Shown here: positions 5,398 to 63,077 of the stretch, in pieces | How the letters are laid out: each line of letters opens with the position of its first letter | Position numbering within the stretch: position 1 is the stretch's first letter | Origin: an uncultured candidatus Brocadiaceae bacterium | GTDB taxonomy: Bacteria; Planctomycetota; UBA11346 | Direction of reading: 5' to 3' | Length of the DNA stretch: 64,000 nt | NCBI GenBank assembly: GCA_964652775.1 | Contig: CAZZAM010000008.1 | Span: forward strand, 43,317-107,316 | Translations under genes and position numbers: made by a program | The notes under the pieces: generated by a model | Seen by the model: only the letters and a program-made list of their open reading frames with translations | Told to the model about the DNA's origin: nothing | The model's database searches: none

Positions 5398-5428
5398 CAG
5401 CCACGCTGGAGCGTGGCGTTCCCAGGCC
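5398..5428. repeat. 31-nt hairpin repeat (family I, copy 1)
   Basis: CAGCCACGCTGGAGCGTGGCGTTCCCAGGCC is identical to 40486-40516. It contains a 7-bp stem (CCACGCT/AGCGTGG) with a GG loop and abuts the mutM stop codon at 5430-5432. Confidence 0.85.
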
Positions 5429-5429
5429 T

Positions 5430-6242
5430 TCACTTCTGACACCTCGGACACCACACCGACGCCCGCCCACCAATCACGCGGCCTTTCAGTGTAGATTTGC
5501 ACATCGAACACGCCTGTCCCTCGCGGCCGTAAACCCGGAACGTGTGCTGGAATCGTCCGGACAGTCCGTTGACGTGGCGGAAGTCGTCGATCGATGAACC
5601 GCCGGCGGCAATGGCCTCGGACAACACTTCGCGAATCACACCGACCAACCGTTCGACGCGTGTCTTGGTGATGCGACCAGCGGCGCGCAGCGGATGGATG
5701 CCGGAGCGGAACAAACTCTCGGCGGCGTAGATGTTACCGACGCCAACGACGACCGCCTGATCCATGATCACAGCCTTCACTGGCGCACGGCGATGGCGTT
5801 GGAACGCGCTGAACAAAACATCGGTGTCGAACGCTGTACTCAATGGCTCCGGTCCCAATGCGTCGAGAGCCGGATGCCGATCACCGTGACGCAGCAAATC
5901 GATGAGGCCGAAACGGCGCGGGTCATTGAACACAACGCGGCGGCCGTCCTTCAGTTCCAGAACGACATGATCGTGCATCTTCTGATCACCCTCAGGCGCG
6001 AGCCGCCACACGCCGGTCATGCCGAGATGGCAGAGTAGGCCGGGGCCATCCGTATCGATCAATAGATACTTGGCCCGGCGACGAACCCCCCGCACGGTTC
6101 GGCCGGCCAACTGCGAGGCCAAGTCCCGGGGCATCGGTTTCCGCAGGTCCTTACGCATGGCCCGCGCCCTGGCGATCACCGATCCAGCGAGTAATCGCTG
6201 CAAACCAGCGCGAACGGTCTCGACTTCGGGGAGTTCGGGCAC
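5430..6242 (-). CDS. mutM: formamidopyrimidine-DNA glycosylase
   Basis: PELPEVETVRAGL N-terminus and a C-terminal zinc finger (CSMC...CPRCQ). Fpg needs an N-terminal Pro, so the start is the GTG at 6242 immediately before PELPEVE rather than the track's ATG at 6284. Confidence 0.9.
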   Translation of the reverse strand: MPELPEVETVRAGLQRLLAGSVIARARAMRKDLRKPMPRDLASQLAGRTVRGVRRRAKYLLIDTDGPGLLCHLGMTGVWRLAPEGDQKMHDHVVLELKDGRRVVFNDPRRFGLIDLLRHGDRHPALDALGPEPLSTAFDTDVLFSAFQRHRRAPVKAVIMDQAVVVGVGNIYAAESLFRSGIHPLRAAGRITKTRVERLVGVIREVLSEAIAAGGSSIDDFRHVNGLSGRFQHTFRVYGREGQACSMCKSTLKGRVIGGRASVWCPRCQK

Positions 6243-6325
6243 GGCGGCATGCTCTGTGCTTTGGAGCCAGGGGAAAGCCGACACCAGTTGACCCTCGCGC
6301 CCGCCCTACACACAATGCCCGACGC

Positions 6326-7276
6326 ATGCAATACGCCCTTGAGGCTCTCGCTGACGGTAAGCAACTGCGGATCGATCCGGCGCAGCCGTTATCGCTGAAA
6401 GTAAAACGTCACAACCAGCCCGGCGGTGAGATCCTGGTCGGCCTCAAAGACGGCAAGCTGTACCTGGATAACCGCAGCACGGCGACCTGCATGGTCAACG
6501 ATGTGCAGAAGGCTGCAGCGGCGTTGGCGCAAGGCGATCGCCTCCAGCTGGGCACGTCTGCCTTCATGGTCGTGGCCATCCAGGCGGTCACGGATGTCGA
6601 AGTCGTTGAACCACGCACTGGCAGTGGCGAGCCCGCAAAGCGCGCGCAACCAACCCCGCCTCCAGTGCCGATGACCGCGATGTATCGCACGCCTGCTGGT
6701 GGAACCAAGGTGCCAACGCCGACTCCGGCGGCAAAACCCTCTTCGGATAGCGATCAGTTGCGTAACCAGCGCCGGATCAGCGCCAGTCGGTTGACCGCTG
6801 TTGAGCCCACCTCGACCCAAAGTTCTGGACTGTTGAAGCGCATGTCGGCGGCCTTCACTGGCCGCAATGAACGTCAGCGTCTGGAACAGTTGGAACAAGA
6901 ACGCCGCGCCGCGCTCATCGAATCTGGGCGCCGCAGCCTGGGCGATGGCGGCGGATTCGGCCTGCCGCCAGACGCGATGAGCAAACTACAAAACGACGAA
7001 GCGGTGATACTGACCCAGGCTGATCTCGCTGGCCTAAGCCAATGGCGCACCGATCGGCAACGCCTCGTACGTCTGGATGCTGAAATCGCTGCGCTGCGCC
7101 AAGCCTTGTTCCTGGGTCCCGATCCCGACGCCGTTCTCCTGACCACGCCGACCCTGCGCTCAGACGAACGGGTAAAGACCGACCGAGCATTCGCGACCAT
7201 GGACGAGATCGGCACGCAAGAACTCAGTGGCATGGTTGATAGTGGAAAGCCGCAGAAGGGGACGAAGGGGAAATGA
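6326..7276 (+). CDS. hypothetical protein with divergent FHA-like N-terminal domain
   Basis: YLDNRSTATCMVNDVQ...LAQGDRLQLGTSAFMV resembles the C-terminal half of FHA domains. A Pro-rich linker and a coiled-coil-like RQRLEQLEQERR segment follow. Confidence 0.5.
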   Translation: MQYALEALADGKQLRIDPAQPLSLKVKRHNQPGGEILVGLKDGKLYLDNRSTATCMVNDVQKAAAALAQGDRLQLGTSAFMVVAIQAVTDVEVVEPRTGSGEPAKRAQPTPPPVPMTAMYRTPAGGTKVPTPTPAAKPSSDSDQLRNQRRISASRLTAVEPTSTQSSGLLKRMSAAFTGRNERQRLEQLEQERRAALIESGRRSLGDGGGFGLPPDAMSKLQNDEAVILTQADLAGLSQWRTDRQRLVRLDAEIAALRQALFLGPDPDAVLLTTPTLRSDERVKTDRAFATMDEIGTQELSGMVDSGKPQKGTKGK

Positions 7277-7278
7277 GT

Positions 7279-7428
7279 GAAATGCCAAATGCTGGAATGC
7301 TGGAATGGATGCGGTGAATAAGCACGACTTACCTGACCGAACAAATAGCTCCTCAGCGGCCTATCCGAACACCCAGCGCTGATTTCTAACACATTCAAGC
7401 ATTCCAGCATTCCAGCATTTGGCATTTC
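7279..7428. repeat. octamer-arm hairpin (family A, GGAATGCT words)
   Basis: Left arm 7279-7307 (GAAATGCCAAATGCTGGAATGCTGGAATG) is the perfect 29-nt reverse complement of right arm 7400-7428. The spacer is 92 nt. It lies between the FHA-like gene stop and the permease GTG start. Confidence 0.9.
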
Positions 7429-7452
7429 CCCAAAACGCCCACACTGCGCCTC

Positions 7453-8805
7453 GTGCTCGCTCTCCACCTTGGCATGCGTTGGCTGAAGCGTCGCCGTGCG
7501 TCATGGTTGGCGCTGGCTGCGATCACGCTCACCGTCGCGGTGCCAATTATCGTCGTTGGCGTGATGCAGGGCTGGATGGAGGTCACTGCGCGCCAAGCGC
7601 GGGCATCTGAAAGCGATGTGGTCATCGTCGCGCCGGGCGTTACTGGTGCCGATCGGCTGCGCGATCACCTTGCCGCAATTCCTGGAGTAGCCGCCGTTGC
7701 GCCGTATGTGCAAAGCTGGGGCGTGATGAATCGGAACCGTGGAGATTCGTCGCTCACCATTCCGTGTCAGATTGAGGGACTTGATTGGGAGGCGGACTGG
7801 AACTTGGGTCGTTTGACGGCGACGGCATTGCATCCACAACCAGTTCTGGATCTGAGTTCGCCACCACTGCCACCAGATCGTCGTGGCACCGGATTCCTGA
7901 CGCCGGCGTGGCGCTCGACCACCGTCCTCGCTGGACTACACCTCGCGCTGGCCTTCGGTGGGCTGCCTGCTGCGCTGCCACCAGCCCAGCGTCCAACACC
8001 GGGCATCGTCTGCGGACGCGAGTTATTGTATCCCCATCACATGCGGCCAGGAGAGCTGGTGTCGATCGTCGTGCCCAATGGCACCGGTGGTAAAGCTGGT
8101 GCGGCGCTGCAGGCCGAGATCAGTGATACCCTGGGCATCGGCGTGATTGAGATCGACCGCTTTCTCGTCCTCGCACCGTTACCATTGGCGCAGCGCACGC
8201 TGGGCATGCAGGCAAAGAATGGAAACTCGGCAAAATTAAGTGGCTGGCGTTTGTCGGCACAGCCAGGCACTGATCCCTACCGCCTAGCAGCGCTGGTCTC
8301 CACCGACACAGGACTATTTGCCGAAACGTGGCAGGACCTGCGTGGCAATCTCGTCAAAGGCATGCAGGTCCAACGCAATATCGGCATTCTGGTCATGATT
8401 CTCATCCAGTTCATCACTGTGTTCATCGTCTACGCGGTGTTCTCGACCATGGTCGTCGAGCTGCGCCACGACATCGGTGTGCTGCGTGGCATCGGCGCAC
8501 GCCGCCGTGATATCGCGTGGGCATTCATCCTCGCCGGACTGATCGCGTGCATTGGCGGCGGCGTGCTTGGCTGGGCGCTCGGTTGGGGCGTGCTCGCGGC
8601 GCTGAATCCGTTCAGCCATCTGACTGGCATTTCGCTCTTTCCCCAGGACGTCATCTACACGCCCGAAGCACCGACCAGCTACGCGTGGTGGATCCCACCC
8701 ATGTTCATCGGCTCGATGACGGTAATCGGCCTGATCGCGGTCGCACTGCCAGCGTGGCGCGCGGCCCGGGTCGATCCCATCGAAACCCTGCGGGAGGGCG
8801 CATGA
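7453..8805 (+). CDS. ABC transporter permease, FtsX/LolE (MacB-type) family
   Basis: 450 aa with an N-terminal TM helix, a large periplasmic domain and the C-terminal FtsX-like 3-TM module (...VLRGIGARRRDI...). It is translationally coupled (ATGA) to the downstream ATPase. Confidence 0.8.
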   Translation: MLALHLGMRWLKRRRASWLALAAITLTVAVPIIVVGVMQGWMEVTARQARASESDVVIVAPGVTGADRLRDHLAAIPGVAAVAPYVQSWGVMNRNRGDSSLTIPCQIEGLDWEADWNLGRLTATALHPQPVLDLSSPPLPPDRRGTGFLTPAWRSTTVLAGLHLALAFGGLPAALPPAQRPTPGIVCGRELLYPHHMRPGELVSIVVPNGTGGKAGAALQAEISDTLGIGVIEIDRFLVLAPLPLAQRTLGMQAKNGNSAKLSGWRLSAQPGTDPYRLAALVSTDTGLFAETWQDLRGNLVKGMQVQRNIGILVMILIQFITVFIVYAVFSTMVVELRHDIGVLRGIGARRRDIAWAFILAGLIACIGGGVLGWALGWGVLAALNPFSHLTGISLFPQDVIYTPEAPTSYAWWIPPMFIGSMTVIGLIAVALPAWRAARVDPIETLREGA

Positions 8806-9464
8806 GCGCGCGCCTCATCGTTACCGGCGTGGCCAAAGCGTATCCCGGCCTGAAAGTCCTGAACGGTCTGAATCTCACGCTGGAAAGCGGCGAGATCATT
8901 GCTGTTCGCGGTGCCTCGGGAACAGGTAAAAGCACCCTGCTGCATTGTCTGGGACTGCTTGATCGTCCTGACGTCGGCTCGATCGTTTTGGATGGCGAGG
9001 AGTTGACACAGTTGTCCGACAGCTGCCGCACCGCCATGCGCGCGCAACGCATTGGCTTCGTATTCCAGGCATTTCATCTGTTGTCCGATTTCACCGTGGT
9101 CGAAAACGTGACCATGGCGGCGCGCACAGCCGGCCTTGAACCGCAGGCCGCACGTGCCCGCGCCGAGGCCTTGCTGACCCGGGTCGGACTCGGCGGACGC
9201 GATGGCGACATCCGCACATTGTCGGGTGGTGAGCGTCAGCGCGTAGCCCTGTGCCGTGCACTGTTGACCAAACCAGCCCTGTTGCTGGCTGACGAGCCAA
9301 CCGGAAATCTTGACCCTACGACGGCGCGCATCGTCCTCGGCGAAATTGTCGCATTGGCCAAAGACAGCGGATCCAGCGTAATCATCGTAACGCACGATGC
9401 CGATGTTGCAGCGCGGGCCGATAAACGGTATGAATTGAAGGATGGACGGTTGGAGTTGGCGTAG
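8802..9464 (+). CDS. ABC transporter ATP-binding protein, LolD-like
   Basis: Walker A GASGTGKSTLL, signature LSGGERQRVALCRAL and Walker B LLLADEPTGNLD. The start is the ATG at 8802; the track's 8517 start reads through the permease in another frame. Confidence 0.85.
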   Translation: MSARLIVTGVAKAYPGLKVLNGLNLTLESGEIIAVRGASGTGKSTLLHCLGLLDRPDVGSIVLDGEELTQLSDSCRTAMRAQRIGFVFQAFHLLSDFTVVENVTMAARTAGLEPQAARARAEALLTRVGLGGRDGDIRTLSGGERQRVALCRALLTKPALLLADEPTGNLDPTTARIVLGEIVALAKDSGSSVIIVTHDADVAARADKRYELKDGRLELA

Positions 9465-9469
9465 ACACA

Positions 9470-9568
9470 GAAATGTCGAATGCTCGAATGTCGAATGCTC
9501 GAATAATTTAAAAGAAACGTCAGCGGCCGATGATTCTCAACATTCGAGCATTCGAGCATTCTACATTC
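9470..9568. repeat. octamer-arm hairpin (family A variant, CGAATGCT/CGAATGT words)
   Basis: Left arm GAAATGTCGAATGCTCGAATGTCGAATGCTCGAAT (9470-9504) is imperfectly complementary to ATTCTCAACATTCGAGCATTCGAGCATTCTACATTC (9533-9568). It lies between convergent genes. Confidence 0.8.
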
Positions 9569-9573
9569 CTACC

Positions 9574-10308
9574 CTACGGCCTCGGCCCTTCCCGCCGTAC
9601 AACCCACGCCTCGGTGCCGTACCGTTCAGCGTGGATTCTTAGCGCAGTTGCCAATTCCGCCGATGTCCACAACCCGGATACCAACGGCAAACCAAGTGCG
9701 GTGCTGATTCCCTCGCAAATCGCCGCCGCGGCGTGGTCCCAACTCAGACCACATCCGCGCACCGCATCGCGATCCCAGGCATTGGTGTCGAGCTTGAGGC
9801 TGCCGTGGAGGATACATCGCTGGCCGCGTACGCGCGCTGCACTGCCCAGGGCTTTGCCGCCATCGGCGTGCACGACGTCGTCTGCAGCAGGACTCGCAAA
9901 ACAGCGCGGTTCGTCGGCATAGCGGCGGTCACCGACCGTATTGGTCTGCAACGACAGCACCGCACCGCGTTGGGCCAGGGAGTTCAATATTGCGCCGTGA
10001 ATCAGCGGATACAGATCACGAGCACGTTTCGGAAATCCGTGTTGATCCAAGACTCCCGCCAAACAGTAGGTCACCTCATGTTCATGCCAAATCGCACCGC
10101 CCCCGGTGATGCGGCGGACCACCGCCGTGCCATATGGCAGGGAGGCAACGATCCCAGCGTAGTCCTGGAAACATCCCAACGACACCGCTCGTGGATTCCA
10201 TCGGTACAGTCGCAGGCTTGGTTCCGTGGCCTCGACCAGCAGCGCCTCATCACGTGCCATTTGTTCAGCACCGTCAGCGGTTAGCTCAGGAAGCAGACGT
10301 ACGCTCAT
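9574..10308 (-). CDS. lipoate-protein ligase / octanoyltransferase family protein (BPL_LplA_LipB)
   Basis: LRLYRWNPRAVSLGCFQ, RRITGGGAIWHEHEVTY and GGKALGSA (the catalytic Lys region) match this family. Confidence 0.7.
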   Translation of the reverse strand: MSVRLLPELTADGAEQMARDEALLVEATEPSLRLYRWNPRAVSLGCFQDYAGIVASLPYGTAVVRRITGGGAIWHEHEVTYCLAGVLDQHGFPKRARDLYPLIHGAILNSLAQRGAVLSLQTNTVGDRRYADEPRCFASPAADDVVHADGGKALGSAARVRGQRCILHGSLKLDTNAWDRDAVRGCGLSWDHAAAAICEGISTALGLPLVSGLWTSAELATALRIHAERYGTEAWVVRREGPRP

Positions 10309-10359
10309 GACGAGCGCCTAGCTTCAGCAGCGATCCCACAGCACAATCCTACGCTGCCG

Positions 10360-11052
10360 TCAGTCGTGTGCAGGACTCGCCGGAGATGGTTCGACACCCT
10401 GGGTTGATTCAGGTTGCGCAACCGGCGTTGGCCTTGGTGGCTTCGCCGATTGCACGACCTCCAACCACAAACGACCGGCCAACTCGCTCGCACGCGCTCG
10501 CCAAACGCTGTCGAGCTGAACCACATCAATACCATGCAACACTTGGTTTGCCTCGCTAATCCGCTGCAGATGCATGAGTGCCTCTGCTTCCATTATCTGG
10601 GTCTCACCGCGCAAATCCGCCGGGTTGTTCAAGCGCACCCACTGCACGGTGGTCAGGATGTCATCCCATCGCCGCTCACCCGCCAGCAGCTGACAGCGTA
10701 TCCGATGAATATTCCCTGCCGCTAGAGGGCGTCTCGACAACTCGCGTCGCCACTGCTCAGCATCGAGGAGAATGGTCCCAGTGGGAACCCCTTCCTGGGC
10801 GCGTTGCGTATAGGTGGCCCGCTCGTCGCGGACGGCGGCGACCAGTTCGGTCATGTCGCGACTCAGGATCATCAGGAACCAACCGAGCGTAACCAGAAGC
10901 GCGAGCGCTATCGTGAGCAGCGCCAAGGTCATCGGCGATGGTCGCGCGATCGCTATCCGCTGCTTACCGGCAATAGCGACAGTCTCGTCGTGACGCGTCA
11001 GCGCCCCGGCCAATGAGGATACAGACGGCCTACGTGCCGAGTCCATAAACAC
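10360..11052 (-). CDS. hypothetical single-pass membrane protein
   Basis: 230-aa ORF with one hydrophobic helix (LALLTIALALLVTLGWFLMIL) and a Pro-rich C-terminus. No domain recognised and the start is uncertain. Confidence 0.4.
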   Translation of the reverse strand: MFMDSARRPSVSSLAGALTRHDETVAIAGKQRIAIARPSPMTLALLTIALALLVTLGWFLMILSRDMTELVAAVRDERATYTQRAQEGVPTGTILLDAEQWRRELSRRPLAAGNIHRIRCQLLAGERRWDDILTTVQWVRLNNPADLRGETQIMEAEALMHLQRISEANQVLHGIDVVQLDSVWRARASELAGRLWLEVVQSAKPPRPTPVAQPESTQGVEPSPASPAHD

Positions 11053-11262
11053 TCCGTGTCGTCAGGCGCTACACGCGCCTGGGTTGCCAGAAGGAAGCGC
11101 ATGGACTGTGCCAAGTAGGTCGGCGGACTCCAGAATACCGGCCTGCCAACGACACGCCCCTCCTACCTCCTGTTTCATTAGATGCAGATAGAGGATGACT
11201 GGATGTGTCCACATGTAAGGCTTCGCCATCGCTACCGGCCATGGTACTTGCAGGAGCCCGCC

Positions 11263-12099
11263 GTGCCACGATCAACTCCGCTCTTCCTCTCGCTCCTCGC
11301 TGGATCGCTCGCCGCCGAATGCTCGGACGCTGGGATTTGCCGACTGGCGCCGCGGGAACCGGTGGACTCCGAACATGCCTGGAGCCTGGGGGCGAGCTTG
11401 GGCATCGCCGCAGGAGCAGAAACTACCGATGTCGTCTATCAGACGCTGACACCTCGGGTGGGCTGGCGCTCGACCAGCGGATTGCGCCTATCAGCAGAAG
11501 TCCCACTGATCAGCCTGAGTGGGCCAGTCGGGGACGCGAGCGGGGTTGGAGATGCGCTGATCTGGGGTGAACAGGTCGTGGCGTCGGGGGACTGGGGCGA
11601 TCTTGGGGTGCAGCTTGGCGCGCGCCTGCCCACCGGAAACGACAATGCACGTCCCGGTTTACCCCAGGCGTATCAACTCGGCCTTGGACCAGCCGACATG
11701 CTCGCCGGCATTGGTTGGTGGCGTGATGGCTACAGCGCTGGAGTTGCCTATGCCCTCGCTGGTGGTGCCAATAATCTGGCTGGGACCAATCTGGAACGCG
11801 GCGACGATCTGGTCCTCCGCGCTGGCTACAGCCACTCCATCGCTGCCTATACCGCTGGTCTCCAGGTCGTGGTGGTGTCTCGACTGGCCGAGTCGAGTGT
11901 ACAGACGCCAACCGGCCGAGCCACGGTGAGTAAAAGTGACGGAGTGCAGCTTAACCTGCGACCCTCATTGGCTTGGCAGGCTGCTCCCGCCTGGCGCGTC
12001 GACTTGGCGCTGGCACTACCGATGTTGAAGCGTGACAACGATGTTGACGGCCTGACTCGACGTTTCGCTGGTGACCTTGGTCTGACTGTCGGGTTCTAA
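11263..12099 (+). CDS. putative outer-membrane beta-barrel protein (transporter-like)
   Basis: A GTG start at 11263 gives a signal-like N-terminus (PRSTPLFLSLLAGSLAA). The body has alternating beta-strand-like segments and ends LGLTVGF with an aromatic C-terminal residue. The family assignment is weak. Confidence 0.45.
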   Translation: MPRSTPLFLSLLAGSLAAECSDAGICRLAPREPVDSEHAWSLGASLGIAAGAETTDVVYQTLTPRVGWRSTSGLRLSAEVPLISLSGPVGDASGVGDALIWGEQVVASGDWGDLGVQLGARLPTGNDNARPGLPQAYQLGLGPADMLAGIGWWRDGYSAGVAYALAGGANNLAGTNLERGDDLVLRAGYSHSIAAYTAGLQVVVVSRLAESSVQTPTGRATVSKSDGVQLNLRPSLAWQAAPAWRVDLALALPMLKRDNDVDGLTRRFAGDLGLTVGF

Positions 12100-12133
12100 G
12101 CCACGAGAAAGTCGATGACCATGTACAAACACG

Positions 12134-13216
12134 CTACGAAATGCCGCCATCGCTGATCGTGATGCCGCGCAGCATCATGCGCAGCTCTTCGGCGTTGGGC
12201 GCAGCGGCCAGAGCGACGTCGGTGGAGATGTGTCCGGCCTTATGCAGCCGATGCAATGCCTGATTGTAGCTTTCGCAGCCATTCTCGCGGTCCTTGGTCA
12301 GGGCGTCGGCGATGCGGGCGAACTCACCGTCCATGATCAGTTTCTTGATCAGCGGTGCGATGAACATCGTCTCAACACAGGGCCACATCTCGCCCTTGGT
12401 CATTCCAGGCAACAACTTCTGGTTGAGGATGCAGCGGAGATTGAACGCGAGACTAGTGCGGATCTGCGCGTGCTTGGAGGACGGAAACAAATCCATGATG
12501 CGGCCCATGGTCTGCGGCGCGCCCGACGAGTGTACTGAGCCGAATACGAGGTGCCCGGTCTCGGCTGCGGTCAACGCGGTCTCGAAGGTTTCGGCATCGC
12601 GCATTTCGCCAAGCAGGATGACGTCGGGATCTTCGCGCACGCACGAGCGCAACGCATCGTCAAATGAAGCGACGTCAGTGAATACTTCACGCTGATTGAT
12701 CACCGCCTTGTCGTCGGTGAAGACGTATTCAACCGGGTCCTCGATAGTCAGAATGTGGCAGCGCCGACGATGGTTGATGTCGTCGAGGATCGAAGCGATG
12801 GTGGTCGATTTGCCCGACCCGGTGATGCCGCCGATCAGAACCAGTCCTTGTTCGAACTCGGCGCACTTGCGGATCTGCGGCGGAAGATGCAGCTCCTCGT
12901 AAGTTGGAATATTAGGTTTCACCCGGCGAATCGCCGCTGAGATGCGGCCAAGCGTTTTGAAAACGTTGCAGCGGAAGCGGCCAAGGCCTTCGACGGCATG
13001 CGAGAAGTCTGCATAACCGCGTACCTTCAACTCGCCGTTGAGCCGCTCGTCGAGGATGGGATTGAGGATGTCAGCGAGGTCAGCAACGGTCAGTGCCGCA
13101 CTCTTCAGGCGCACCAAGTCACCGCCAACCCGGAACACCGGCGGCTCGCCGACGCGCAGATGCAGATCGCTGGCGTTATGCTTACCCATGGCCGAGAGAA
13201 GATCACTGAGGTTCAT
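12134..13216 (-). CDS. pilT: type IV pilus twitching-motility ATPase PilT
   Basis: 360 aa with ASDLHL, Walker A GITGSGKSTT, the Asp/His boxes (ILLGEMRD, TGHLVFGSVH) and a typical PilT length. Confidence 0.9.
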   Translation of the reverse strand: MNLSDLLSAMGKHNASDLHLRVGEPPVFRVGGDLVRLKSAALTVADLADILNPILDERLNGELKVRGYADFSHAVEGLGRFRCNVFKTLGRISAAIRRVKPNIPTYEELHLPPQIRKCAEFEQGLVLIGGITGSGKSTTIASILDDINHRRRCHILTIEDPVEYVFTDDKAVINQREVFTDVASFDDALRSCVREDPDVILLGEMRDAETFETALTAAETGHLVFGSVHSSGAPQTMGRIMDLFPSSKHAQIRTSLAFNLRCILNQKLLPGMTKGEMWPCVETMFIAPLIKKLIMDGEFARIADALTKDRENGCESYNQALHRLHKAGHISTDVALAAAPNAEELRMMLRGITISDGGIS

Positions 13217-13329
13217 GCCAGCGCAGCCTAGTCGGTGGCAGACCTTGGGTAGTCCCCCTCCAACAGCCCCACCTGACGTGCATCACCTTCCACTCCGCGC
13301 ACAAGGTCGTTCAACCAATCCGAGCGGGG

Positions 13330-13430
13330 TTGTCCACAGATTTCGCAGATTATGCAGATTTTGCAGGCGCATGGTGGCCCCGAACATGTACTTCGCAATC
13401 TGTGCAATCTGCGAAATCTGTGGATAACAA
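13330..13430. repeat. heptamer-arm hairpin (family B, CGCAGAT words, TTATCC terminus)
   Basis: Left arm TTGTCCACAGATTTCGCAGATTATGCAGATTTTGCAG (13330-13366) pairs with right arm CGCAATCTGTGCAATCTGCGAAATCTGTGGATAACAA (13394-13430). It lies between divergent pilT and the dehydrogenase gene. Confidence 0.85.
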
Positions 13431-13537
13431 TCTCGAAATCCCACTCATCTGCGGACCCTGATAACGAACTGAATACTATTAACGCCGCGCAGCGACGGTG
13501 CCCTTGGCACACCTCGCGACAGTCCATAGTCGTACCC

Positions 13538-14575
13538 ATGAGCACCACCCTGAAGCTCCTCCACCTGTCGAAACGCAATCTCTGGCCAGCCCTGTGGTCC
13601 AACACGTTTCGTCGCGCGCTCGCGCCGTTTGGCGAGGTGACCATCCTTTCGGATGCGAGCGCCATGCCGATAGCGGAGCAGCTTGAACGCATCCGTAGCT
13701 GCGATGTCTTGCTGACCGGCTGGGGCACCACGCCCATTCCACGTGAGATCGCCAGCGATCCCGGCCGCCTGCGCTATGTCTGCAACATCACCGGTGGGCT
13801 GAAGGGCTGGGTGCCGATTGAGCTCATCCAAGCCAATATTCCGGTGACCAACTGGGGCGATGCGCCAGCGTTTCACGTTGCCGAAGGATCGCTCACACTG
13901 CTTCTCGCCTGCTTGAAAAATCTCGGTGGTCATATGGCTGAAAAACGTACCGGCGGCTGGAGCAACACCTGGACCGGACCAGCCGTCCAGTGCGGCTCAT
14001 TACGTGGGCTGCGTGTTGGACTCTATGGCCTCGGCGTCATCGGACGCAAATTCGCCGAACAACTGCTGCCGTTTGGTGCAGTGGTTTCAGCCTTCGATCC
14101 CTATGCGAAGGATTGGCCACCCTCTATACGTAAGGTGGACACACTGCAGGAGCTCTTTGCGACCGCCGAGGCGATCTCGCTACATGCCGGTGTGAACGAT
14201 AGCACCACCCACAGCGTCACCGCAGATCTCCTGCGCCAGCTGCCAGACCATGGCATTGTGATCAACACGGCGCGTGGCGTGATCATTGATCAGCCCGCGC
14301 TCTTCGCTGAGCTAGCAAGCGGACGACTGCGGGCTGGGCTTGATGTGTTGGACGATGGCGACTCGCTGCCGCCCGAGCATCCAGCGCGGCAGTGGCCCAA
14401 TCTCATCCTCACCAGTCACGCTGTCGGCGGCTCGTCCTGGCCGATTCATCCAGAAAACCCGGAGAGTCCGCTGCAAATTCACCATGAGATCTGCATCGAT
14501 AACCTGGGTCGCTTCGCACGCGGCGAACCACCACGCTTCAGGATCAGTGCCGAACAATATCAGTTGATGACGTGA
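13538..14575 (+). CDS. D-isomer-specific 2-hydroxyacid dehydrogenase family protein
   Basis: NAD-binding GLYGLGVIGRKF, NTARGVIIDQPAL and LTSHAVGG (catalytic His). The start is set at the MSTTLKLL Met; the upstream extension in the track reads through repeat B1. Confidence 0.8.
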   Translation: MSTTLKLLHLSKRNLWPALWSNTFRRALAPFGEVTILSDASAMPIAEQLERIRSCDVLLTGWGTTPIPREIASDPGRLRYVCNITGGLKGWVPIELIQANIPVTNWGDAPAFHVAEGSLTLLLACLKNLGGHMAEKRTGGWSNTWTGPAVQCGSLRGLRVGLYGLGVIGRKFAEQLLPFGAVVSAFDPYAKDWPPSIRKVDTLQELFATAEAISLHAGVNDSTTHSVTADLLRQLPDHGIVINTARGVIIDQPALFAELASGRLRAGLDVLDDGDSLPPEHPARQWPNLILTSHAVGGSSWPIHPENPESPLQIHHEICIDNLGRFARGEPPRFRISAEQYQLMT

Positions 14576-14588
14576 ACCGACCTTGGCC

Positions 14589-14621
14589 CGCAGTCCGGAA
14601 ATCCGGACTACTGCATTCAGG
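14589..14621. repeat. short hairpin (family J, copy 1)
   Basis: CGCAGTCCGGAAATCCGGACTACTGCATTCAGG contains the stem GCAGTCCGGA/TCCGGACT(A)CTGC. It overlaps the galK stop codon and shares TCCGGACT..GC..ATTCAGG with 28095-28120. Confidence 0.5.
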
Positions 14622-15792
14622 GTAACACCAACGGCAACGAACCGGCCCCGGCAGCAGCGCGGGTGACGTACACTTTCGGCGACATGCTTGGGAACTTGGC
14701 GCGATACTGTTTTTCAAGTTCGGCAACAAACGCAGGAACGTGTTCGTCTCGCACCAAGCTGACGGAACAACCCCCGAAACCGGCGCCGGTCATGCGACTG
14801 CCCAGACAACCGGGCAGCGAACGTGCGATCGTCACCATCGCATCCAACTCAGCGCAACTGACTTCGAACTTGTCGCGCAGATCGGCGTGGCTCTGGTCCA
14901 TCAGTTCGCCCAGGGCTACGGCGTCACCGGCACGCAAGCACGCATAGGCGGCGCGAGTGCGACCATTTTCAGCGACAACATGTTCACAGCGGCGCTTGGT
15001 GGTAGCGTCCAGACGACCGCTCTGAGTCGCCTGCGCCAAGCCATGCATCGTGACATCGCGCAGATGACTCACGCCGAGTGCACGCGCGCCCGCTTCGCAT
15101 TGAGAGCGGCGTTCGTTGTAGGCGCTGTCCACCAAACCACGGCGTTTTCCGGTGTCGGCGATGACGATATTCACGCCGATCGGCAACGGAGCTGGGGTCA
15201 ACTGCATCGTCCGACAATCCATCAGCATCGCTTGGCCGACCGTTGCACACGAACTGGATAGCGGATCGAGGATACCGCACTTGGTTCCCACGTAGGTATT
15301 CTCGGCTCGCTGCGCCAGGGTAGCGATTTCGGCACCCGGCCGAACGACGCCGGCAACCGCGAGAAACGCATGTATGGACGCGACCTCCAACGCTGCCGAA
15401 CTAGACAGTCCCGACGCCAGCGGCACATCGCCGGTGATAGCCAGATCACAGCCGGTCAACGCGATACCGACTTCTTGTAACACCTGCGCGCAACCACTGA
15501 CGTAATCAACCCATCGCGTCACATCGGTCGTCGCGTGCGCGATCGGCGGCGCGAGTGCGAATTCGACGATGCCGGTTTGTTCCAACGAGGTGACGCGAAC
15601 ACGGCGATCAGCGCGCCGCCGCCAAGCGATGCGCACATCGCGTTCGATCGCCATCGGCAAACAAAAACCGTCGTTATAGTCGGTGTGTTCGCCGATGAGG
15701 TTCACCCGTCCAGGCGCGCGCACCGCACCAGTAGGCGCGGTGCCATAGGCGGTAGTGAACGCAGTGACCAGTGATGCTGTGCGATTACTCAT
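14617..15792 (-). CDS. galK: galactokinase
   Basis: GRVNLIGEHTDYNDGFCLPMAI signature, the GHMP kinase motif (PLASGLSSSAALEV) and C-terminal GAGFGGC. The start is set at the MSNRTASL Met. Confidence 0.9.
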   Translation of the reverse strand: MSNRTASLVTAFTTAYGTAPTGAVRAPGRVNLIGEHTDYNDGFCLPMAIERDVRIAWRRRADRRVRVTSLEQTGIVEFALAPPIAHATTDVTRWVDYVSGCAQVLQEVGIALTGCDLAITGDVPLASGLSSSAALEVASIHAFLAVAGVVRPGAEIATLAQRAENTYVGTKCGILDPLSSSCATVGQAMLMDCRTMQLTPAPLPIGVNIVIADTGKRRGLVDSAYNERRSQCEAGARALGVSHLRDVTMHGLAQATQSGRLDATTKRRCEHVVAENGRTRAAYACLRAGDAVALGELMDQSHADLRDKFEVSCAELDAMVTIARSLPGCLGSRMTGAGFGGCSVSLVRDEHVPAFVAELEKQYRAKFPSMSPKVYVTRAAAGAGSLPLVLP

Positions 15793-15944
15793 AAGGGCGC
15801 GGCGCAGCGTGGTACTTGCACAAGCGATGGAAGCGGGTTTCAGCTTTCCTGAGAGCGCCGCACTCCCATGCGGCGCGAATCGTGAATACACCAGCAACTA
15901 TACCCATTGCCCCTGGCCGCACAGGGGTGCGGCGCTCCCAGAGT

Positions 15945-17108: not shown

Positions 17109-17176
17109 GGGCGGCACTCTAGCCAGGCCGGAGGCCAACTGGTAGTCCTGAAATCTTAGTGCTGTTACACCGCGCT

Positions 17177-18184: not shown

Positions 18185-18264
18185 GCGCCGGAGGGTAGTG
18201 AGCGACCCGGTCGTGACCATACCCCTCTTCCTTGCATCGATACACACAGCTATCAGCATTCCGC

Positions 18265-19149: not shown

Positions 19150-19201
19150 ACGCGTTGAGTCAGGATACTACTGCGGGATATCCGCAGAGACCCTCCCGCA
19201 T

Positions 19202-19382: not shown

Positions 19383-19440
19383 AAACTCGAAAGATTGCTC
19401 ATCTCCAGATATTCCGACTGTTAACTAAACACCATTGGCC

Positions 19441-46631: not shown

Positions 46632-46636
46632 GCGCA

Positions 46637-47737: not shown

Positions 47738-47748
47738 ACCTCTCTGTG

Positions 47749-47887: not shown

Positions 47888-47909
47888 GCCTCTGCGGCAA
47901 AAGATAAAG

Positions 47910-49115: not shown

Positions 49116-49118
49116 ACG

Positions 49119-49634: not shown

Positions 49635-49647
49635 AAAAACTATCCGA

Positions 49648-49739
49648 TTTATTGTCCGCAGATTTCGCAGATGACGCAGATTTCGAAGTGTGTATTTCTT
49701 GCTGCTTCGACCTGCGAAATCTGAGTAATCTGCGGATAA
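49648..49739. repeat. heptamer-arm hairpin (family B)
   Basis: Left arm TTATTGTCCGCAGATTTCGCAGATGACGCAGATTTCGAAG (49648-49687) pairs with right arm CTTCGACCTGCGAAATCTGAGTAATCTGCGGATAAC (49704-49739). The spacer is 16 nt. It lies between convergent genes. Confidence 0.85.
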
Positions 49740-51422: not shown

Positions 51423-51465
51423 GGGCGGAACCGTATGGGGGTGGTGGGAACGGCAAGGAGGGGAA

Positions 51466-51632
51466 GGAATGCTGGAATGCTGGAATGCTGGAATGCTGGA
51501 ATATCGAGGAAATTTGGGGATTCTCGACTCCATCGATAGCATCGAAGGATGCCACCGAACATCGGCACGTCATCGAAATCCTCAACCAAGCTCAGACTAC
51601 TGCTCTCGGACATTCCAGCATTCCAGCATTTC
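51466..51632. repeat. octamer-arm hairpin (family A)
   Basis: Left arm (GGAATGCT)x4 + GGAATA (51466-51503) pairs with right arm CATTCCAGCATTCCAGCATTTC (51611-51632). The spacer is ~107 nt. It lies between the divergent ABC ATPase and bamA. Confidence 0.85.
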
Positions 51633-51691
51633 TCATCCCCCCCAACCATACCCCTTGGGCCACCATGAAGCCCCGTTAGCATCCCGCTCCC

Positions 51692-54312: not shown

Positions 54313-56829
<2,517 letters not shown>

Positions 56830-57271: not shown

Positions 57272-57420
57272 CAAGGCAACCGCAGAGGCACAGAGGCCGC
57301 TGAGATCGCAGAGGGGAGAGGGATGTCTTGGGCATCCCACATCTCACGTGTGTAGATCGACCAGTCCCAAGAGCCTTTCTCTGCGTCCTCAGCGGCCTCT
57401 GCGCCTCTGCGGTTGCCTTG
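57272..57420. repeat. hairpin (family C words with CAAGGCAACC clamp)
   Basis: Left arm CAAGGCAACCGCAGAGGCACAGAGGCCGCTGAGATCGCAGAGG (57272-57314) pairs with right arm TCTCTGCGTCCTCAGCGGCCTCTGCGCCTCTGCGGTTGCCTTG (57378-57420). By hand, 39 of 43 positions are complementary. Confidence 0.9.
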
Positions 57421-57434
57421 GCTTGCTCGACAGT

Positions 57435-57655
57435 TCAGCGGCCCGCCTCCCGCGCGCTGTACCGATAGAGCACCAACCCTGATAAAATCTTGGGCGCGAA
57501 GAACGTACTCTTCTCCGGCATGACGATGTCGGGATTACTGCGGCCGGCGTCGGCGACGGCCATCAACTCGGCGATCGACACCGGATGCTGGGCGGTAGCG
57601 AGGTCATATTTTCCGGCATCTACTGCTTCTTTCATCTTCGCCATCTCCCATTCGG
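57435..57655 (-). pseudogene. detached duplicate of the 3' end (~73 codons plus stop) of the DUF1015 gene
   Basis: Colinear with 60673-60895. By hand alignment there are ~24 substitutions and no indels in ~222 nt. The peptide ...AEWEMAKMKEAVDAGKYDLATAQHPVSIAELMAVADAGRSNPDIVMPEKSTFFAPKILSGLVLYRYSAREAGR compares with ...AEWELAKMKEAVDAGKYDLAIALHPVSIAELMAVADAGRSNPDIVMPEKSTFFAPKILSGLVLYRHSARAAGR. Confidence 0.8.
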
Positions 57656-57785
57656 CTCAACCACCCGTGCAATAACAGATAACATACGGCAACTTTGGAC
57701 GCCTAGTTTATACTCGCCGAGCATGTACGACTCGTCGTTAGCTCCTTCGCCGCACTAGATCCACATCGTCACCACGAGGCTCACC

Positions 57786-60620: not shown

Positions 60621-60657
60621 TTCGAAATCATCTCCATCTGCGCAATCTGTGGATAAC
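60621..60657. repeat. solo right arm of family B at the edge of the inserted block
   Basis: TTCGAAATCATCTCCATCTGCGCAATCTGTGGATAAC. No matching left arm lies upstream, because the DegT coding sequence ends at 60606. Confidence 0.75.
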
Positions 60658-60672
60658 CCTGCGAATGTATGC

Positions 60673-61845
60673 TCAGCGTCCAGCAGCCCGTGCGCTGTGC
60701 CGATAGAGCACCAACCCTGACAGAATTTTCGGCGCGAAAAACGTGCTCTTCTCCGGCATGACGATGTCGGGATTGCTGCGGCCAGCGTCGGCGACGGCCA
60801 TCAATTCGGCGATCGACACCGGATGCAGGGCGATGGCGAGGTCGTATTTCCCGGCATCGACCGCTTCTTTCATCTTCGCCAGCTCCCACTCGGCGTAGTA
60901 GTCGAAGTGCTTGGGATCCTTGATCATCGCGTGGGTGAGACCCAGAACCGGATACAGTTCGCGTTCCAGAATCGCGCAGTCGAGGCTGCCGCGCGGATCA
61001 GTGGGAACAGTCTTGGCCTTCAGCGCAAAGCAGCCGCTCTTGTGGTAGATGCGGAACTCGCGGTGCGGCGGTGTGTCCCAGGTCGCGGGCGTGAGTTGCA
61101 ACTGTGCTTTGATTTCAGTGAATAATTTCACGCCGGTGACAAGGCGGTTGTAGGCCTGGATCGCAGCGCGTTCGACGACGTAGGCCAAGCAATGGCTCTG
61201 CCCGCCAAGCAAGGCTGCGTGATAGCGATGATGGCCATCAGCGATGTAGAGGGGGTTCTGTCCGACCAAACGCTGCAACTGCTGGCCGTCAGGCGAACTC
61301 TCGGGGACCAGGAAGATGCGACTCGCGATGCCGTCAAGATCGTTGAGACCTTTGAAGTCGCTGATGAAATCGTAGTCGGGCTTGTGCGACGAGGCGATCT
61401 TGTGAAGCACCGGCGTGATCGGCGAGCGGGTGAGCAGGAACACCGGCTCCAAGGTGACGCCGGTCTGCTTAGTCAGCTTCAAGCGGCCCTGCACTTTTTC
61501 GTCGAAGACCTTTTCGTGACGAATGACTTGGCCGGCGGGATAGTCGGACACTTCGACCGCAGCGAAAACGCCAATGCGCGACTGCGCTCCTTTGGCTGAC
61601 TGCCAACGCTGCTCATAGACGATAAAATGCGGTTTATCGAGCGGTTTGAACGAGCCGTTGGTCAATCGCTTGAGTGACCCAAGCGGATCGGGGCCAAGCG
61701 TCACGTGCCAGAGATTGTCCGGCTCGGACTTGAGCAACGCCTCCAGCGGCGAACCCTCGCGAATGACGTCGTACGGTGGCGCAGTGACGCGAACGACGGC
61801 CGCTGAGGAGGGAATATGGCCCGTAAGGCCGGCGATCTGGGTCAT
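60673..61845 (-). CDS. DUF1015 domain-containing protein
   Basis: 390 aa. ...VTAPPYDVI..., IADGHHRYHAAL and C-terminal MPEKSTFFAPKILSGLV are typical DUF1015 blocks. Confidence 0.8.
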   Translation of the reverse strand: MTQIAGLTGHIPSSAAVVRVTAPPYDVIREGSPLEALLKSEPDNLWHVTLGPDPLGSLKRLTNGSFKPLDKPHFIVYEQRWQSAKGAQSRIGVFAAVEVSDYPAGQVIRHEKVFDEKVQGRLKLTKQTGVTLEPVFLLTRSPITPVLHKIASSHKPDYDFISDFKGLNDLDGIASRIFLVPESSPDGQQLQRLVGQNPLYIADGHHRYHAALLGGQSHCLAYVVERAAIQAYNRLVTGVKLFTEIKAQLQLTPATWDTPPHREFRIYHKSGCFALKAKTVPTDPRGSLDCAILERELYPVLGLTHAMIKDPKHFDYYAEWELAKMKEAVDAGKYDLAIALHPVSIAELMAVADAGRSNPDIVMPEKSTFFAPKILSGLVLYRHSARAAGR

Positions 61846-61863
61846 GGGAACCTCGATGTATTA

Positions 61864-61987
61864 TCACATGGAGAAACGGAGGAACGGAGATCGCAATGGC
61901 ATCGGGATTCGCTCGCCACCTCAATGAATGAACAAAGATTGTGTTCACAGGCCATCTGCTGCTCCGGTTCTCCGTTTCTCCATGTGA
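61864..61987. repeat. hairpin (family E)
   Basis: Left arm TCACATGGAGAAACGGAGGAACGGAGATC (61864-61892) pairs with right arm GCTCCGGTTCTCCGTTTCTCCATGTGA (61961-61987). It lies between accD and the DUF1015 gene. Confidence 0.8.
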
Positions 61988-62007
61988 ATCATTGCGGATG
62001 AGGACGG

Positions 62008-62856
62008 TCAGACGACGGCTGGAGCCTGCAAATAGACGAGTAGACGCGCCAGCTCGGCCTTCAGATCCTGTCGTGAGACGATCAGATCAACCTGGCCATG
62101 CTTGAGTAGGAACTCCGAAGTCTGGAATCCGTCGGGCAATTCCTGTTTGATCGTTTCCTGAATCACGCGTGCGCCGGTAAAACCGATCATCGCTTTCGGC
62201 TCCGCGATAATCACGTCACCAAGCGATGCGTAGCTGGCCATGACGCCGGCCATGGTCGGATTGGTCAGCACGCTGATGAAGGGAACCCTCGCTTCGCGCA
62301 GACGCGCCAAGGCAGCCGAGGTCTTGGCCATCTGCATGAGCGACAGCACGCCTTCCTGCATGCGCGCGCCGCCGGAGGCCGAGATCACGATCGCCGGAAT
62401 GCGCCGCTTGAGACATTGCTCGAACTGGCGGGTCAGCTTTTCACCAACCACCGATCCCATCGATCCGCCATTGAACGAGAAGTCACTGACGCCCAGGCCG
62501 ACCATCTGGCCAGACAGTTTGCCGCAGCCAGTCAGGATCGCATCCTTGAGCCCTGTTTTGCTCTGCTGCTGGGCGATGCGCTCGGGGTAGGTTTTCCCAT
62601 CGACGAACTTGAGCGGGTCGCCCGAGGTCATGTTGACGTCCCATTCCTCCCAGGTGTCCTCATCGATGAGCGAGGCGACGCGGCGACGCGACAGCATCTT
62701 GAAGTGATGGTTGCACTCCGGGCAAGTGTCCAGGCGCTCTTCGACCAGGCGCTTGAACACCGTCTTCAGACAACCGGGGCATTTCTCCCACAGACCATCG
62801 GGAATCTTCTTGGGGTCACGGCCGGTGGCACCGCGGCGCAGGCGATCGAGGACCAT
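62008..62856 (-). CDS. accD: acetyl-CoA carboxylase carboxyltransferase subunit beta
   Basis: N-terminal zinc ribbon (CPGC...CPEC) and a carboxyltransferase domain (GGSMGSVVGEK, SGGARMQEG). Confidence 0.9.
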   Translation of the reverse strand: MVLDRLRRGATGRDPKKIPDGLWEKCPGCLKTVFKRLVEERLDTCPECNHHFKMLSRRRVASLIDEDTWEEWDVNMTSGDPLKFVDGKTYPERIAQQQSKTGLKDAILTGCGKLSGQMVGLGVSDFSFNGGSMGSVVGEKLTRQFEQCLKRRIPAIVISASGGARMQEGVLSLMQMAKTSAALARLREARVPFISVLTNPTMAGVMASYASLGDVIIAEPKAMIGFTGARVIQETIKQELPDGFQTSEFLLKHGQVDLIVSRQDLKAELARLLVYLQAPAVV

Positions 62857-62972
62857 CGAGGAACGGCTCCTGGGGAAGCCGGGATCCTATGACCGATGAT
62901 GGGCCGGAAAGGGGGAGAATCGCCTGGGAGCGCCGCACCGGTGCGGCTAACATTAGGTTAGAAATAGGGCTT

Positions 62973-63077
62973 GAATGGCGAATGCTCGAATGGCGAATGC
63001 TCGAATGGACACTGAAAAGGCCAAATGCGATCAATTTTCGACATTCGAGCATTCAAACATTCGCGCATTCGACATTC
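62973..63077. repeat. octamer-arm hairpin (family A variant, CGAATGCT/CGAATGG words)
   Basis: Left arm GAATGGCGAATGCTCGAATGGCGAATGCTCGAATGG (62973-63008) pairs with right arm CGACATTCGAGCATTCAAACATTCGCGCATTCGACATTC (63039-63077). It lies between divergent accD and the SH3b gene. Confidence 0.8.

Follow-up and report, generated by a model that had tools for sequence, protein, structure and literature searches.

Word-Repeat Hairpins in the Intergenic DNA of a Brocadiaceae Bacterium Fall into Related Families with Counterparts in Other Phyla

Introduction

What kind of element builds one and the same hairpin, out of different short words, in gap after gap of a bacterial contig? The question is raised by a 64,000-nt stretch of DNA (positions 43,317 to 107,316 of contig CAZZAM010000008.1, assembly GCA_964652775.1) from an uncultured candidatus Brocadiaceae bacterium of the Planctomycetota; this whole stretch is called the window below, and position numbers count from its first letter. 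Its intergenic gaps hold elements in which an array of a tandemly repeated word is followed by a loop and then by the reverse complement of the array. A first-pass annotation had taken the words of the various elements to be unrelated, and had argued for a shared generating or selecting mechanism rather than one mobile family. Here, the elements were found to be family-structured copies that are gained and lost as whole hairpins, occur patchily across many phyla, and change in word number by single-word steps. The reading that we prefer, and hold tentatively, is that they are small, non-autonomous dispersed repeats of the foldback type, which fall into several related families, would have been copied as hairpins and reshaped by slippage, and may form hairpins of RNA or DNA in both directions.

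About a third of the organism's intergenic DNA, as sampled by the window, consists of such elements, and their word families extend from Planctomycetota to Geobacter, Bacteroidota and Pseudomonadota. They add a new phylum to a kind of repeat that had been noticed before but little studied; what is new is the sharing of specific arms across phyla, the invariant polarity, the adjacency to stop codons, and the filled and empty states of orthologous sites. Polarity, stop-codon placement, gain and loss, and cross-phylum words thereby offer handles on a repeat class so far mentioned only in passing in genome papers.

Architecture and Abundance of the Hairpins

Tandem arrays were located with Tandem Repeats Finder and inverted repeats with an inverted-repeat scan; a separate scan without gaps accepted arms of ≥20 nt with ≥80% complementarity and loops of ≤200 nt, and thirty dinucleotide-preserving shuffles of the window served as its null model. 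The scans bore out the hairpin architecture where it had been noticed. By the ungapped criteria, the window contained 15 long inverted repeats against a mean of 0.2 in the shuffles, in which the longest arm was 23 nt. Arrays with periods of 7–10 nt occurred in mirror-image pairs with 2–6 copies of the word per arm, and outside the window arms reached ~15 words. By the inverted-repeat scan, arms were 20–42 nt in length, 81–100% complementary, and separated by 10–123 nt; the perfect 29-nt complement of 7279–7307 and 7400–7428 that had been reported was recovered. The individual arms were not palindromic, consisting of tandem words devoid of internal self-complementarity that pair with the opposite arm only, and word spacing varied from 7 to 10 nt even inside one element. 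RNA folding z-scores for 13 elements ranged from −2.8 to −13.1. The copy number of the two arms was unequal and shiftable, in agreement with the earlier suggestion that the stems can pair in shifted registers.

In total, 16 full tandem-word hairpins, two one-armed remnants (45503–45538 and 60621–60662), and three plain or REP-like (repetitive extragenic palindromic) inverted repeats were counted, so that the earlier figure of about 22 elements is close if the three plain repeats are included, although only 16 are full hairpins. Gaps of ≥60 nt were taken from a gene map that was self-trained and then curated. Hairpins accounted for 2016 of ~6410 non-coding nt (31%), all in gaps, which upholds the claim of a large non-coding share, and they lay in convergent (6 of 9), tandem (5 of 13) and divergent (5 of 11) gaps alike, as had been proposed. 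Loops averaged ~50% G+C, compared to ~60% for the window; the description of the spacers as AT-richer therefore stands relative to the window as a whole, but loops were not in every case AT-richer than their own arms.

Spurious translations of such arrays had been suspected in automated annotations. Indeed, 'hypothetical proteins' of 30–70 aa made of MLECWNAG repeats formed 50 clusters in JGI, ENA and NCBI annotations. The elements thus yield false proteins and also break short-read assemblies, and annotation pipelines could mask them.

Word Families and Shared Termini

Comparison of the sequences indicates that the words are related to one another and that the elements form family-structured copies. 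The elements at 21460 (CACGGGG) and 57272 (CGCAGAGG) opened with an identical unique decamer, CAAGGCAACC, and their words differed mostly by A↔G changes. Unique termini were shared by family (CAAGGCAACC, TTCACAYGGAG, GTTRTCCRCAGAT, and GAAATGYC-RAATGCT), and within each family the outer terminus was non-repeated or degenerate while the inner words were more canonical. Mixed-word elements linked the families, for example that at 34038 in the window and one in Stutzerimonas (L024), in which one arm consisted of GGAATGCT and the other of the complement of GGAAGGCT, different word variants having been homogenized in each arm. In the CGCAGAT family, similarity continued beyond the arms, over ~30 nt of the loop and ~20 nt of the flank (the element at 19205–19381 had a portion of its loop and its 3' flank homologous to 13329–13446), and the GAAGG pair (26378 and 34038) had part of the loop in common. 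With shared termini, A↔G word changes, mixed-word elements, and homology in loops and flanks, the words can no longer be called unrelated.

Arm complementarity within an element (0.86–0.92) was barely above the similarity of left and right arms between elements of the same family (0.75–0.87). The arms therefore follow a family consensus and not just the need to pair, and compensatory covariation was rejected on the same ground. A signature of selection on one RNA strand was likewise rejected, as the stem mismatches comprised 12 G:T, 12 A:C and 26 others of transversion type, favoring neither strand.

Three outer termini of the CGCAGAT family (13420–13428, 19373–19381, and 60652–60660) contained TGTGGATAA, the reverse complement of the DnaA-box consensus TTATCCACA. 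The window contained gyrB (54400–56829) and no switch in GC skew, and the likeness to a DnaA box is possibly a coincidence.

Occurrence in Other Genomes and Arm Polarity

A genome scan with the 20-mer AATGCTGGAATGCTGGAATG, using one genome per species, revealed at least 81 loci in more than 40 genomes of Planctomycetota, Verrucomicrobiota, Desulfobacterota, Bacteroidota, Gammaproteobacteria, and other phyla, and the same arms recurred in Stutzerimonas, where S. azotifigens DSM 17556 is a cultivable carrier. Among the matches listed, at least 17 loci had an inverted partner within 300 nt of the array and hence the same hairpin build. The order at these 17 loci was always GGAATGCT…loop…AGCATTCC and never the reverse (17:0); with five window elements and one in contig L088 the total came to 23:0, the purine-richer strand of the word constantly running 5' to 3' toward the loop. 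A polarity tied to replication, with the purine-rich arm on the left, was considered and dropped because an inverted repeat reads alike on both strands; the true rule is an intrinsic word-toward-loop polarity.

The 19-nt arm string AATGCCAAATGCTGGAATG, including its degenerate outer words, was identical in the window (~60% G+C), in the metagenome-assembled genome (MAG) MAG.349 (JAKLKR01; 72–75%) and in 'bacterium Bin_7_3' (JAIFND01; ~70%). Other words of the window adjoined these arrays elsewhere: TTCACACGGAGGAACG… in Bin_7_3, with an unrelated loop, GGATGAAGG in the Tepidisphaeraceae genome OY969783, GGAGGAAGG in MAG.349, and CACAGGGGACACGGAGA in Psychromonas. The arms of 24221–24351 were nearly identical to those of an element in contig L080 of Bin_7_3, again with unrelated loops. 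The word had no match in a collection of 2.9 million viral contigs, and a phage origin was rejected accordingly.

Solo arrays of ~20 words (AGCATTCC / ATCATTCC) with no inverted partner were seen in low-G+C genomes, at 7062–7221 of a Psychromonas sp. KJ10-10 contig (L036), where the array adjoins the CACAGGGGACACGGAGA hairpin, and at 1096–1279 of a Calditrichia contig (L017). In a 2.2-kb contig of Sulfurovum kebritense (L016), an insertion sequence (IS) with open reading frames (ORFs) for a helix-turn-helix and an IS1-like DDE protein lay between direct (GGAATGCT)n arrays at 22–82 and 2071–2179. Such arrays may be targets of IS elements, here as for ISGme8 and ISGme9 of Geobacter metallireducens.

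Gain, Loss, and Remodeling at Orthologous Sites

Relatives at 60–80% protein identity (contigs L085, L086, and L087; 47 kb together) contained no such hairpin. The gap between the GATase and DUF2934 genes, which houses the element at 30624, was 209 nt in the window and 6 nt in a relative with the same gene order; that between Ham1 and a histidine kinase gene was 172 nt in the window and 7–13 nt in L087; and at serS the relative L085 lacked exactly the hairpin at 34038, a clean indel. In the Desulfobacterales genome CSMAG_143, a 246-nt unit comprising hairpin and loop was present at two unrelated loci with sharp borders, and the copies differed by one 8-nt word and one single-nucleotide polymorphism (SNP), which shows both copying of the whole unit and slippage of a single word. 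The two arms can also change independently, as in L088 (~15 vs. 5 words). Taken with the family-consensus arms and the occurrence of AATGCCAAATGCTGGAATG in three genomes, these empty orthologous sites leave the earlier preference for a common mechanism over a mobile family unsupported.

At the strain level, no presence/absence or word-count variation was detected among independent contigs, the sole variant inside an element being one SNP in an arm.

Position Relative to Genes

In the window, arms lay closer to gene tails (median 18.5 nt) than to gene heads (median 54.5 nt; Mann-Whitney p = 0.01), with a gene tail adjoining 11 of the 16 elements and divergent genes flanking the other five. None of the right arms read had a T-tract directly after it, the nearest case being a T6 run ~10 nt past 24351, and several were followed by runs of A; the G+C-rich stem with a direct U-tract that defines an intrinsic terminator was not found among them. 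Terminator-like sites (stem plus T-tract) were not enriched over window positions 1–20 kb (14 vs. 16.7 expected from shuffles). The elements are not ordinary intrinsic terminators, and the lack of direct T-tracts, the divergent placement of 5 of 16 and the terminator count all sustain the earlier objection to a pure terminator role. Sigma-70-like promoter matches over positions 1–20000 were likewise few (3 vs. 6.6 expected), and the low numbers of terminator and promoter matches suggest that this organism uses non-canonical signals.

The window, of ~60% G+C, carried housekeeping genes including gyrB, ileS, serS, dnaJ-grpE, bamA, ilvBH-type genes, lolCD-like ABC transporter genes, fpg and clpS, and scans found no tRNA gene and, at the gathering score, no Rfam family in it. 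One of its proteins had a counterpart with 100% identity in a 'Planctomycetota bacterium' MAG obtained from groundwater of the Hainich H51 well.

Origin of the Elements

Every element combines two inverted arms, and in each arm a family-specific outer terminus is followed by 2–6 copies (elsewhere up to ~15) of a 7–10-nt word. Under the reading that we tentatively prefer, a trans-acting machinery would insert copies of such elements between genes, with a preference for sites right behind stop codons. The leading candidate would be a sequence-specific recombinase or transposase, for example one of the HUH Y1 enzymes (REP-associated tyrosine transposases, RAYT, or the related TIRYT enzymes, in which the transposase is associated with terminal inverted repeats) that are numerous in Planctomycetes. 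Replication slippage would then expand, contract, and homogenize the word arrays, while loops would diverge or be replaced. Once in place, the elements could form long symmetrical hairpins in transcripts of either strand, or cruciforms in DNA, and such hairpins could serve as 3'-end barriers or insulators. What is said here of a mobilizing enzyme, of the cause of the polarity, and of a function is inferred.

The nearest architectural analogue appears to be the eukaryotic foldback (FB) transposons. In Drosophila and other eukaryotes these have long inverted arms of short tandem subrepeats, most degenerate at one edge, with unequal or variable arm lengths and central loops that are heterogeneous or unrelated; they are kilobase-sized, and some have coding loops. 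We know of no established prokaryotic counterpart.

Several observations weigh against mobility. No enzyme could be linked to any arm from the ~50 window proteins and the neighborhoods checked, and those ~50 proteins included no transposase and no RAYT. Target-site duplications were absent from the borders of the window copies, of the MAG.349 copies, and of the 246-nt Desulfobacterales unit. In the AATG family, no loop homology was found in the window or among ~10 copies in MAG.349, and these mutually unrelated loops therefore give no hint that whole elements were copied recently in those genomes. Upstream of the histidine kinase gene, the window carried a CCGCAGAGG hairpin and L088 (52% protein identity) a AATGCTCG hairpin, each stopping 10–12 nt before the start codon; upstream of ileS, solo (GGAATGCT)4.5 in the window was matched by solo (GGCCAGC)5 in L087, both after a conserved GAGGCAGGAT(A/T)GG. 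Different words at one site in different relatives fit site-specific selection or in situ turnover at least as well as mobility. Finally, solo (GGAATGCT)n arrays of other phyla had, among the matches listed, a same-strand stop codon within 60 nt on their 5' side in 20 cases and a gene start there in 5, with only 6 genes within 60 nt on the 3' side. Sense-oriented arrays right after stop codons suggest a role at the transcript level, which would not be expected of purely selfish elements.

A second explanation, which we regard as rather unlikely, is that the hairpins were built in place and selected. Terminator-like inverted repeats would have been lengthened by slippage of 7–10-nt units, too long for mismatch repair to correct, symmetrized by intra-strand template switching, and kept as two-way 3'-end barriers, RNase III sites or operon insulators in an organism without canonical U-tract terminators. 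Strong folding, the proximity of gene tails (18.5 vs. 54.5 nt), the occupancy of 6 of 9 convergent gaps, the lack of enrichment of canonical terminators, the different words at the same sites in relatives, and the polymorphism in word number all agree with it, as do the stabilizing or coupling roles proposed for short tandemly repeated repetitive (STRR) sequences (PMC2670836). Against construction in place stand, however, non-repeated termini and arm strings of 19–28 nt that are identical across loci and across genomes of 60–75% G+C, and the 23:0 polarity, which pairing does not require. There was also no bias of G:U over A:C (12 vs. 12, with 26 of transversion type) and no pair-specific covariation beyond the family consensus. 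Furthermore, 5 of 16 elements lie between divergent genes, and close relatives manage with hairpin-free gaps of 7–13 nt. The selecting mechanism proposed in the first pass is favored by one point, the different words that the same intergenic sites carry in different relatives.

If the arms obey a consensus, they could be arrays of binding sites, with one cognate protein per word family and the hairpin potential a by-product of inverting the arrays. The candidates would be nucleoid or regulatory proteins on DNA, such as integration host factor (IHF) or HU, or RNA-binding proteins such as S1, CsrA, and Csp acting on the purine-rich sense arrays after stop codons. Consistent with this, the arms track the family consensus and not partner-specific pairing, the words are conserved across phyla, the polarity is fixed, and solo sense arrays abut stop codons (20 vs. 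5, among the matches listed). Even so, none of the words fits the IHF consensus WATCAANNNNTTR, and the five or more word themes would require five proteins in one genome, while close relatives lack every theme simultaneously. Word spacing also varies from 7 to 10 nt within single elements, and no candidate binding protein is encoded beside any element of the window. Similar proposals have been made before (PMC2700814, PMC4679880). We judge this explanation unlikely.

It is quite doubtful that the elements are REP doublets forming hairpins (REPINs) or bacterial interspersed mosaic elements (BIMEs) moved specifically by RAYT (TnpA-REP) enzymes. The build of a REP doublet, in which a less conserved spacer separates two conserved inverted arms (PMC3116915, PMC3733652), is indeed matched, the absence of target-site duplications is what HUH enzymes predict, RAYTs are many in Planctomycetes, and GTAG-tagged REP-like units share the same gaps. 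The single arms, nevertheless, are not palindromic and bear no GTAG or CGTC tag, and there was no RAYT gene in the window or beside the arrays at the loci checked.

More speculative, and in our estimate improbable, is that arrays such as (GGAATGCT)n and (TCAGAAG)n constitute a pan-bacterial, horizontally shared signal system and not junk. A patchily distributed machinery may write purine-rich sense-strand word arrays right after stop codons, perhaps as a sequence-specific recombinase or as a templated polymerase extending both sides of a break with word repeats; the latter would by itself give the invariant polarity of word, loop, and complementary word, together with unique filler loops. A conserved RNA- or DNA-binding factor may then read the arrays and control transcript ends or ribosome hand-over, perhaps in lineages where Shine-Dalgarno sites or U-tract terminators are sparingly used.

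Assembly artefacts of low-complexity reads, suggested by one Logan contig that terminates exactly at the arm start 30624 and named in the first pass as a way in which the elements might prove spurious, have a negligible probability and are excluded, as far as these data reach, by the agreement of independent contigs with the window. Five contigs from three independent assemblies matched the window over five elements save for one arm SNP and three differences outside the elements. Three assemblies were identical over 30624–30738 and 34038–34113, and two further ones covered 46635–49739 with a single SNP. A cultured isolate, complete genomes, and the finished genome of G. metallireducens showed the hairpin build as well.

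Comparison with Known Repeat Classes

A literature search with the exact word or with MLECWNAG-type peptides gave no match. The earlier statement that the elements belong to no named class was too strong, given the STRR hairpins (PMC2670836, PMC4476775) and the paired sites of G. metallireducens (PMC2700814). The latter were listed as 'putative global regulator binding sites' of classes 1–3 (Aklujkar et al., 2009; PMC2700814), class 3 consisting of about five tandem heptanucleotides, MTYCTGA, paired on opposite strands and directed away from the loop. These sites resemble the window elements in having four or five tandem octa- or heptanucleotides with poorly conserved outer copies, in forming opposite-strand pairs at a variable distance of ~70–115 nt, and in being multicopy and mostly intergenic; they are missing from the sister species G. 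sulfurreducens, a patchiness like that seen here. All eight class-3 pairs given in the supplement (8/8) had the polarity found here. MTYCTGA matched the right arms of two window elements only and with the same polarity (as CTTCTGA and CTTCTGC): 26378–26490 (CTTCTGC-ATTCTTC-CTTCTGC) and 34038–34113 (CTTCTGC-CTTCCTA-CTTCTGA). The Geobacter sites differ in belonging to another phylum, and GGAATGCT, CGCAGAT, CACGGGG, and CGCCAAGG are not among the words in the lists consulted; the authors read the sites as IHF/HU sites and not as hairpins or repeat families. Two insertion sequences, ISGme8 and ISGme9, keep a constant spacing to class-1 octamer sites in that genome (PMC2700814).

The STRR sequences also combine tandem degenerate ~7-nt words in non-coding DNA with complementary arrays that form a hairpin, and both features were found in the window. 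The STRR word sets CCCCAGT, TTGGTCA, and CAACAGT come from cyanobacterial hosts, and they were not matched by the words of the window, whose host belongs to the Planctomycetota. To our knowledge, family-specific non-repeated termini have not been described for STRRs. Periods in the window are mostly 8–10 nt, words and lineage are different, and the loops are long and unique. In both cases, however, degenerate tandem words make up both hairpin arms in intergenic or intronic DNA, with variable copy number (PMC2670836, PMC4476775), and one word class can replace another without loss of the structure. The cyanobacterial heptamers fold into hairpins between genes (PMC2670836), and two interchangeable 7-nt motifs form the P6b stem of the Nostoc tRNA-Leu intron (PMC4476775).

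REPINs and BIMEs share with the window elements two conserved inverted units around a less conserved, variable spacer, an extragenic location, several families per genome, a lack of target duplication, and a patchy distribution (PMC3116915, PMC3733652). REP dimers can have spacers that differ in both sequence and length, and numerous Y1 transposases with cognate repeats are present in Rhodopirellula baltica (PMC3733652). REPIN units are, in contrast, short imperfect palindromes with a 6–13-bp stem, whereas the arms here are tandem-word arrays, and the termini (CAAGGCAACC, TTCACA, GTTRTCC, GAAATGYC, and GTGAGCC) do not include the REP tag GTAG or CGTC; GTAG was seen only in separate outer REP-like units, such as that at 21380.

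Direct heptamer repeats of TAACTGA in Beggiatoaceae, Cyanobacteria, and Bacteroidetes (MacGregor, 2015; PMC4679880) are similar in consisting of one short intergenic word in tandem in distant phyla, with horizontal spread suspected and the mechanism not evident, and a transcript-level role has been proposed for them. They are nearly all direct (one set is inverted) and lie just upstream of start codons (PMC4679880), unlike the inverted pairs of the window and the solo arrays just downstream of stop codons.

Two further candidates were considered. Of the features of miniature inverted-repeat transposable elements (MITEs) derived from DDE transposons, family-specific terminal inverted repeats are present and target-site duplications were not seen; no insertion sequence sharing the element ends was seen, the Sulfurovum IS lying between direct arrays, and inverted arrays 0.3–4 kb apart around an ORF, as expected of an autonomous partner, enclosed only housekeeping genes, besides the one IS between direct arrays. 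CRISPR arrays consist of direct repeats of 24–48 nt with unique spacers of similar length, while the repeats here are inverted and form a single pair per locus.

Elements of the Window

The one-armed (GGAATGCT)×4.5 array at 45503–45538, upstream of ileS, is on the plus strand. Three hairpins belonged to the AATGCTGG family. That at 7279–7428 begins 2 nt past the stop codon of the gene 6326–7276 and has a 92-nt loop (z −9.0); that at 46635–46766 lies in a tandem gap, 3 nt after a stop codon; and that at 51465–51633, in the divergent gap upstream of bamA, has unequal arms of 4.6 and 2.5 words. The CGCAGATNN family comprised hairpins at 13329–13428 (divergent gap; termini GTTGTCCACAGAT / ATCTGTGGATAAC; z −9.3), 19205–19381 (convergent gap; 34-nt arms, 94% complementary; loop 109 nt), and 49652–49739 (convergent gap), and the remnant at 60621–60662 is a solo right arm of the CGCAGAT family (…CATCTGCGCAATCTGTGGATAAC). 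To the ACGGAGGA family belonged hairpins at 24221–24351 (terminus TTCACA) and at 61864–61987 (terminus TCACAT; tandem −/− gap).

The hairpin at 21460–21587, built from CACGGGG(AG) with the terminus CAAGGCAACC, occupies the divergent gap upstream of dnaJ (z −13.1) and sits within the outer REP-like inverted repeat 21384–21413 / 21631–21660. Its terminus recurs in the CGCAGAGGC hairpin at 57272–57420, located 11 nt past a stop codon, with 42-nt arms that are 93% complementary (z −12.4). A hairpin of GAAGGAT / GAAGGCA heptamers at 26378–26490 has a left array that overlaps the stop codon of an EamA-family gene, and a heptamer hairpin of mixed words (AAGGCTG, AAGGAGG, AAGGCAG, and AATGAGG) with a 10-nt loop lies in the divergent serS gap (34038–34113). 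In convergent gaps, the AATGCTCG / AATGTCG hairpin at 9469–9570 has stop codons 4 nt and 3 nt away, and the CGCCAAGG hairpin at 30624–30738 lies inside the outer inverted repeat 30578–30611 / 30750–30783. The CCGCAGAGGG hairpin at 47747–47899 (38-nt arms, 92% complementary) is 9 nt past the Ham1 stop codon and 10 nt ahead of the histidine kinase gene start. Finally, a hairpin built from the 15-nt double word GAATGGCGAATGCTC occupies a divergent gap at 62969–63077.

Other Repeats in the Same Gaps

A second repeat type consisted of REP-like inverted units with a GGGGC-NN-CGCCC mini-hairpin, one of which is preceded by GTAG (GGCCGTAGGGGCAACGCCC), at 21376–21413 / 21631–21660, 30578–30611 / 30750–30783, and 35736–35763 / 35847–35874. 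The first two enclose a tandem-word hairpin, resulting in nested hairpins, and in the third a perfect 28-nt inverted repeat flanks an inner G+C-rich hairpin. The GTAGGGGC motif of these units also occurred inside an element of Bin_7_3 (L011), and the GGGGCNNCGCCC motif alone was not enriched in the window (14 matches vs. 11.9 expected).

A perfect 31-nt direct repeat, CAGCCACGCTGGAGCGTGGCGTTCCCAGGCC, was present at 5398–5428 and 40486–40516; it contains a 7-bp hairpin and is not a tandem-word element. Its first copy coincides with the start coordinate of the first-pass finding, and its second copy falls in the doubtful N-terminal part of ORF 40159–41799. Within the class-III aminotransferase ORF (38475–39944), positions 38881–38912 carried a tandem heptamer, (AACCGCG)×4.6, with no inverted partner.

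A 222-nt segment was duplicated at 57435–57656 and 60673–60894 with 89% identity. The copy at 57435–57656, a 3'-end fragment of the DUF1015 gene (60673–61845, minus strand), begins 15 nt past the hairpin 57272–57420, and the short ORF 57435–57644 is therefore probably a pseudogene fragment. The original copy begins ~10 nt past the solo arm remnant at 60621–60662, and the rearrangement may be linked to the hairpin elements.

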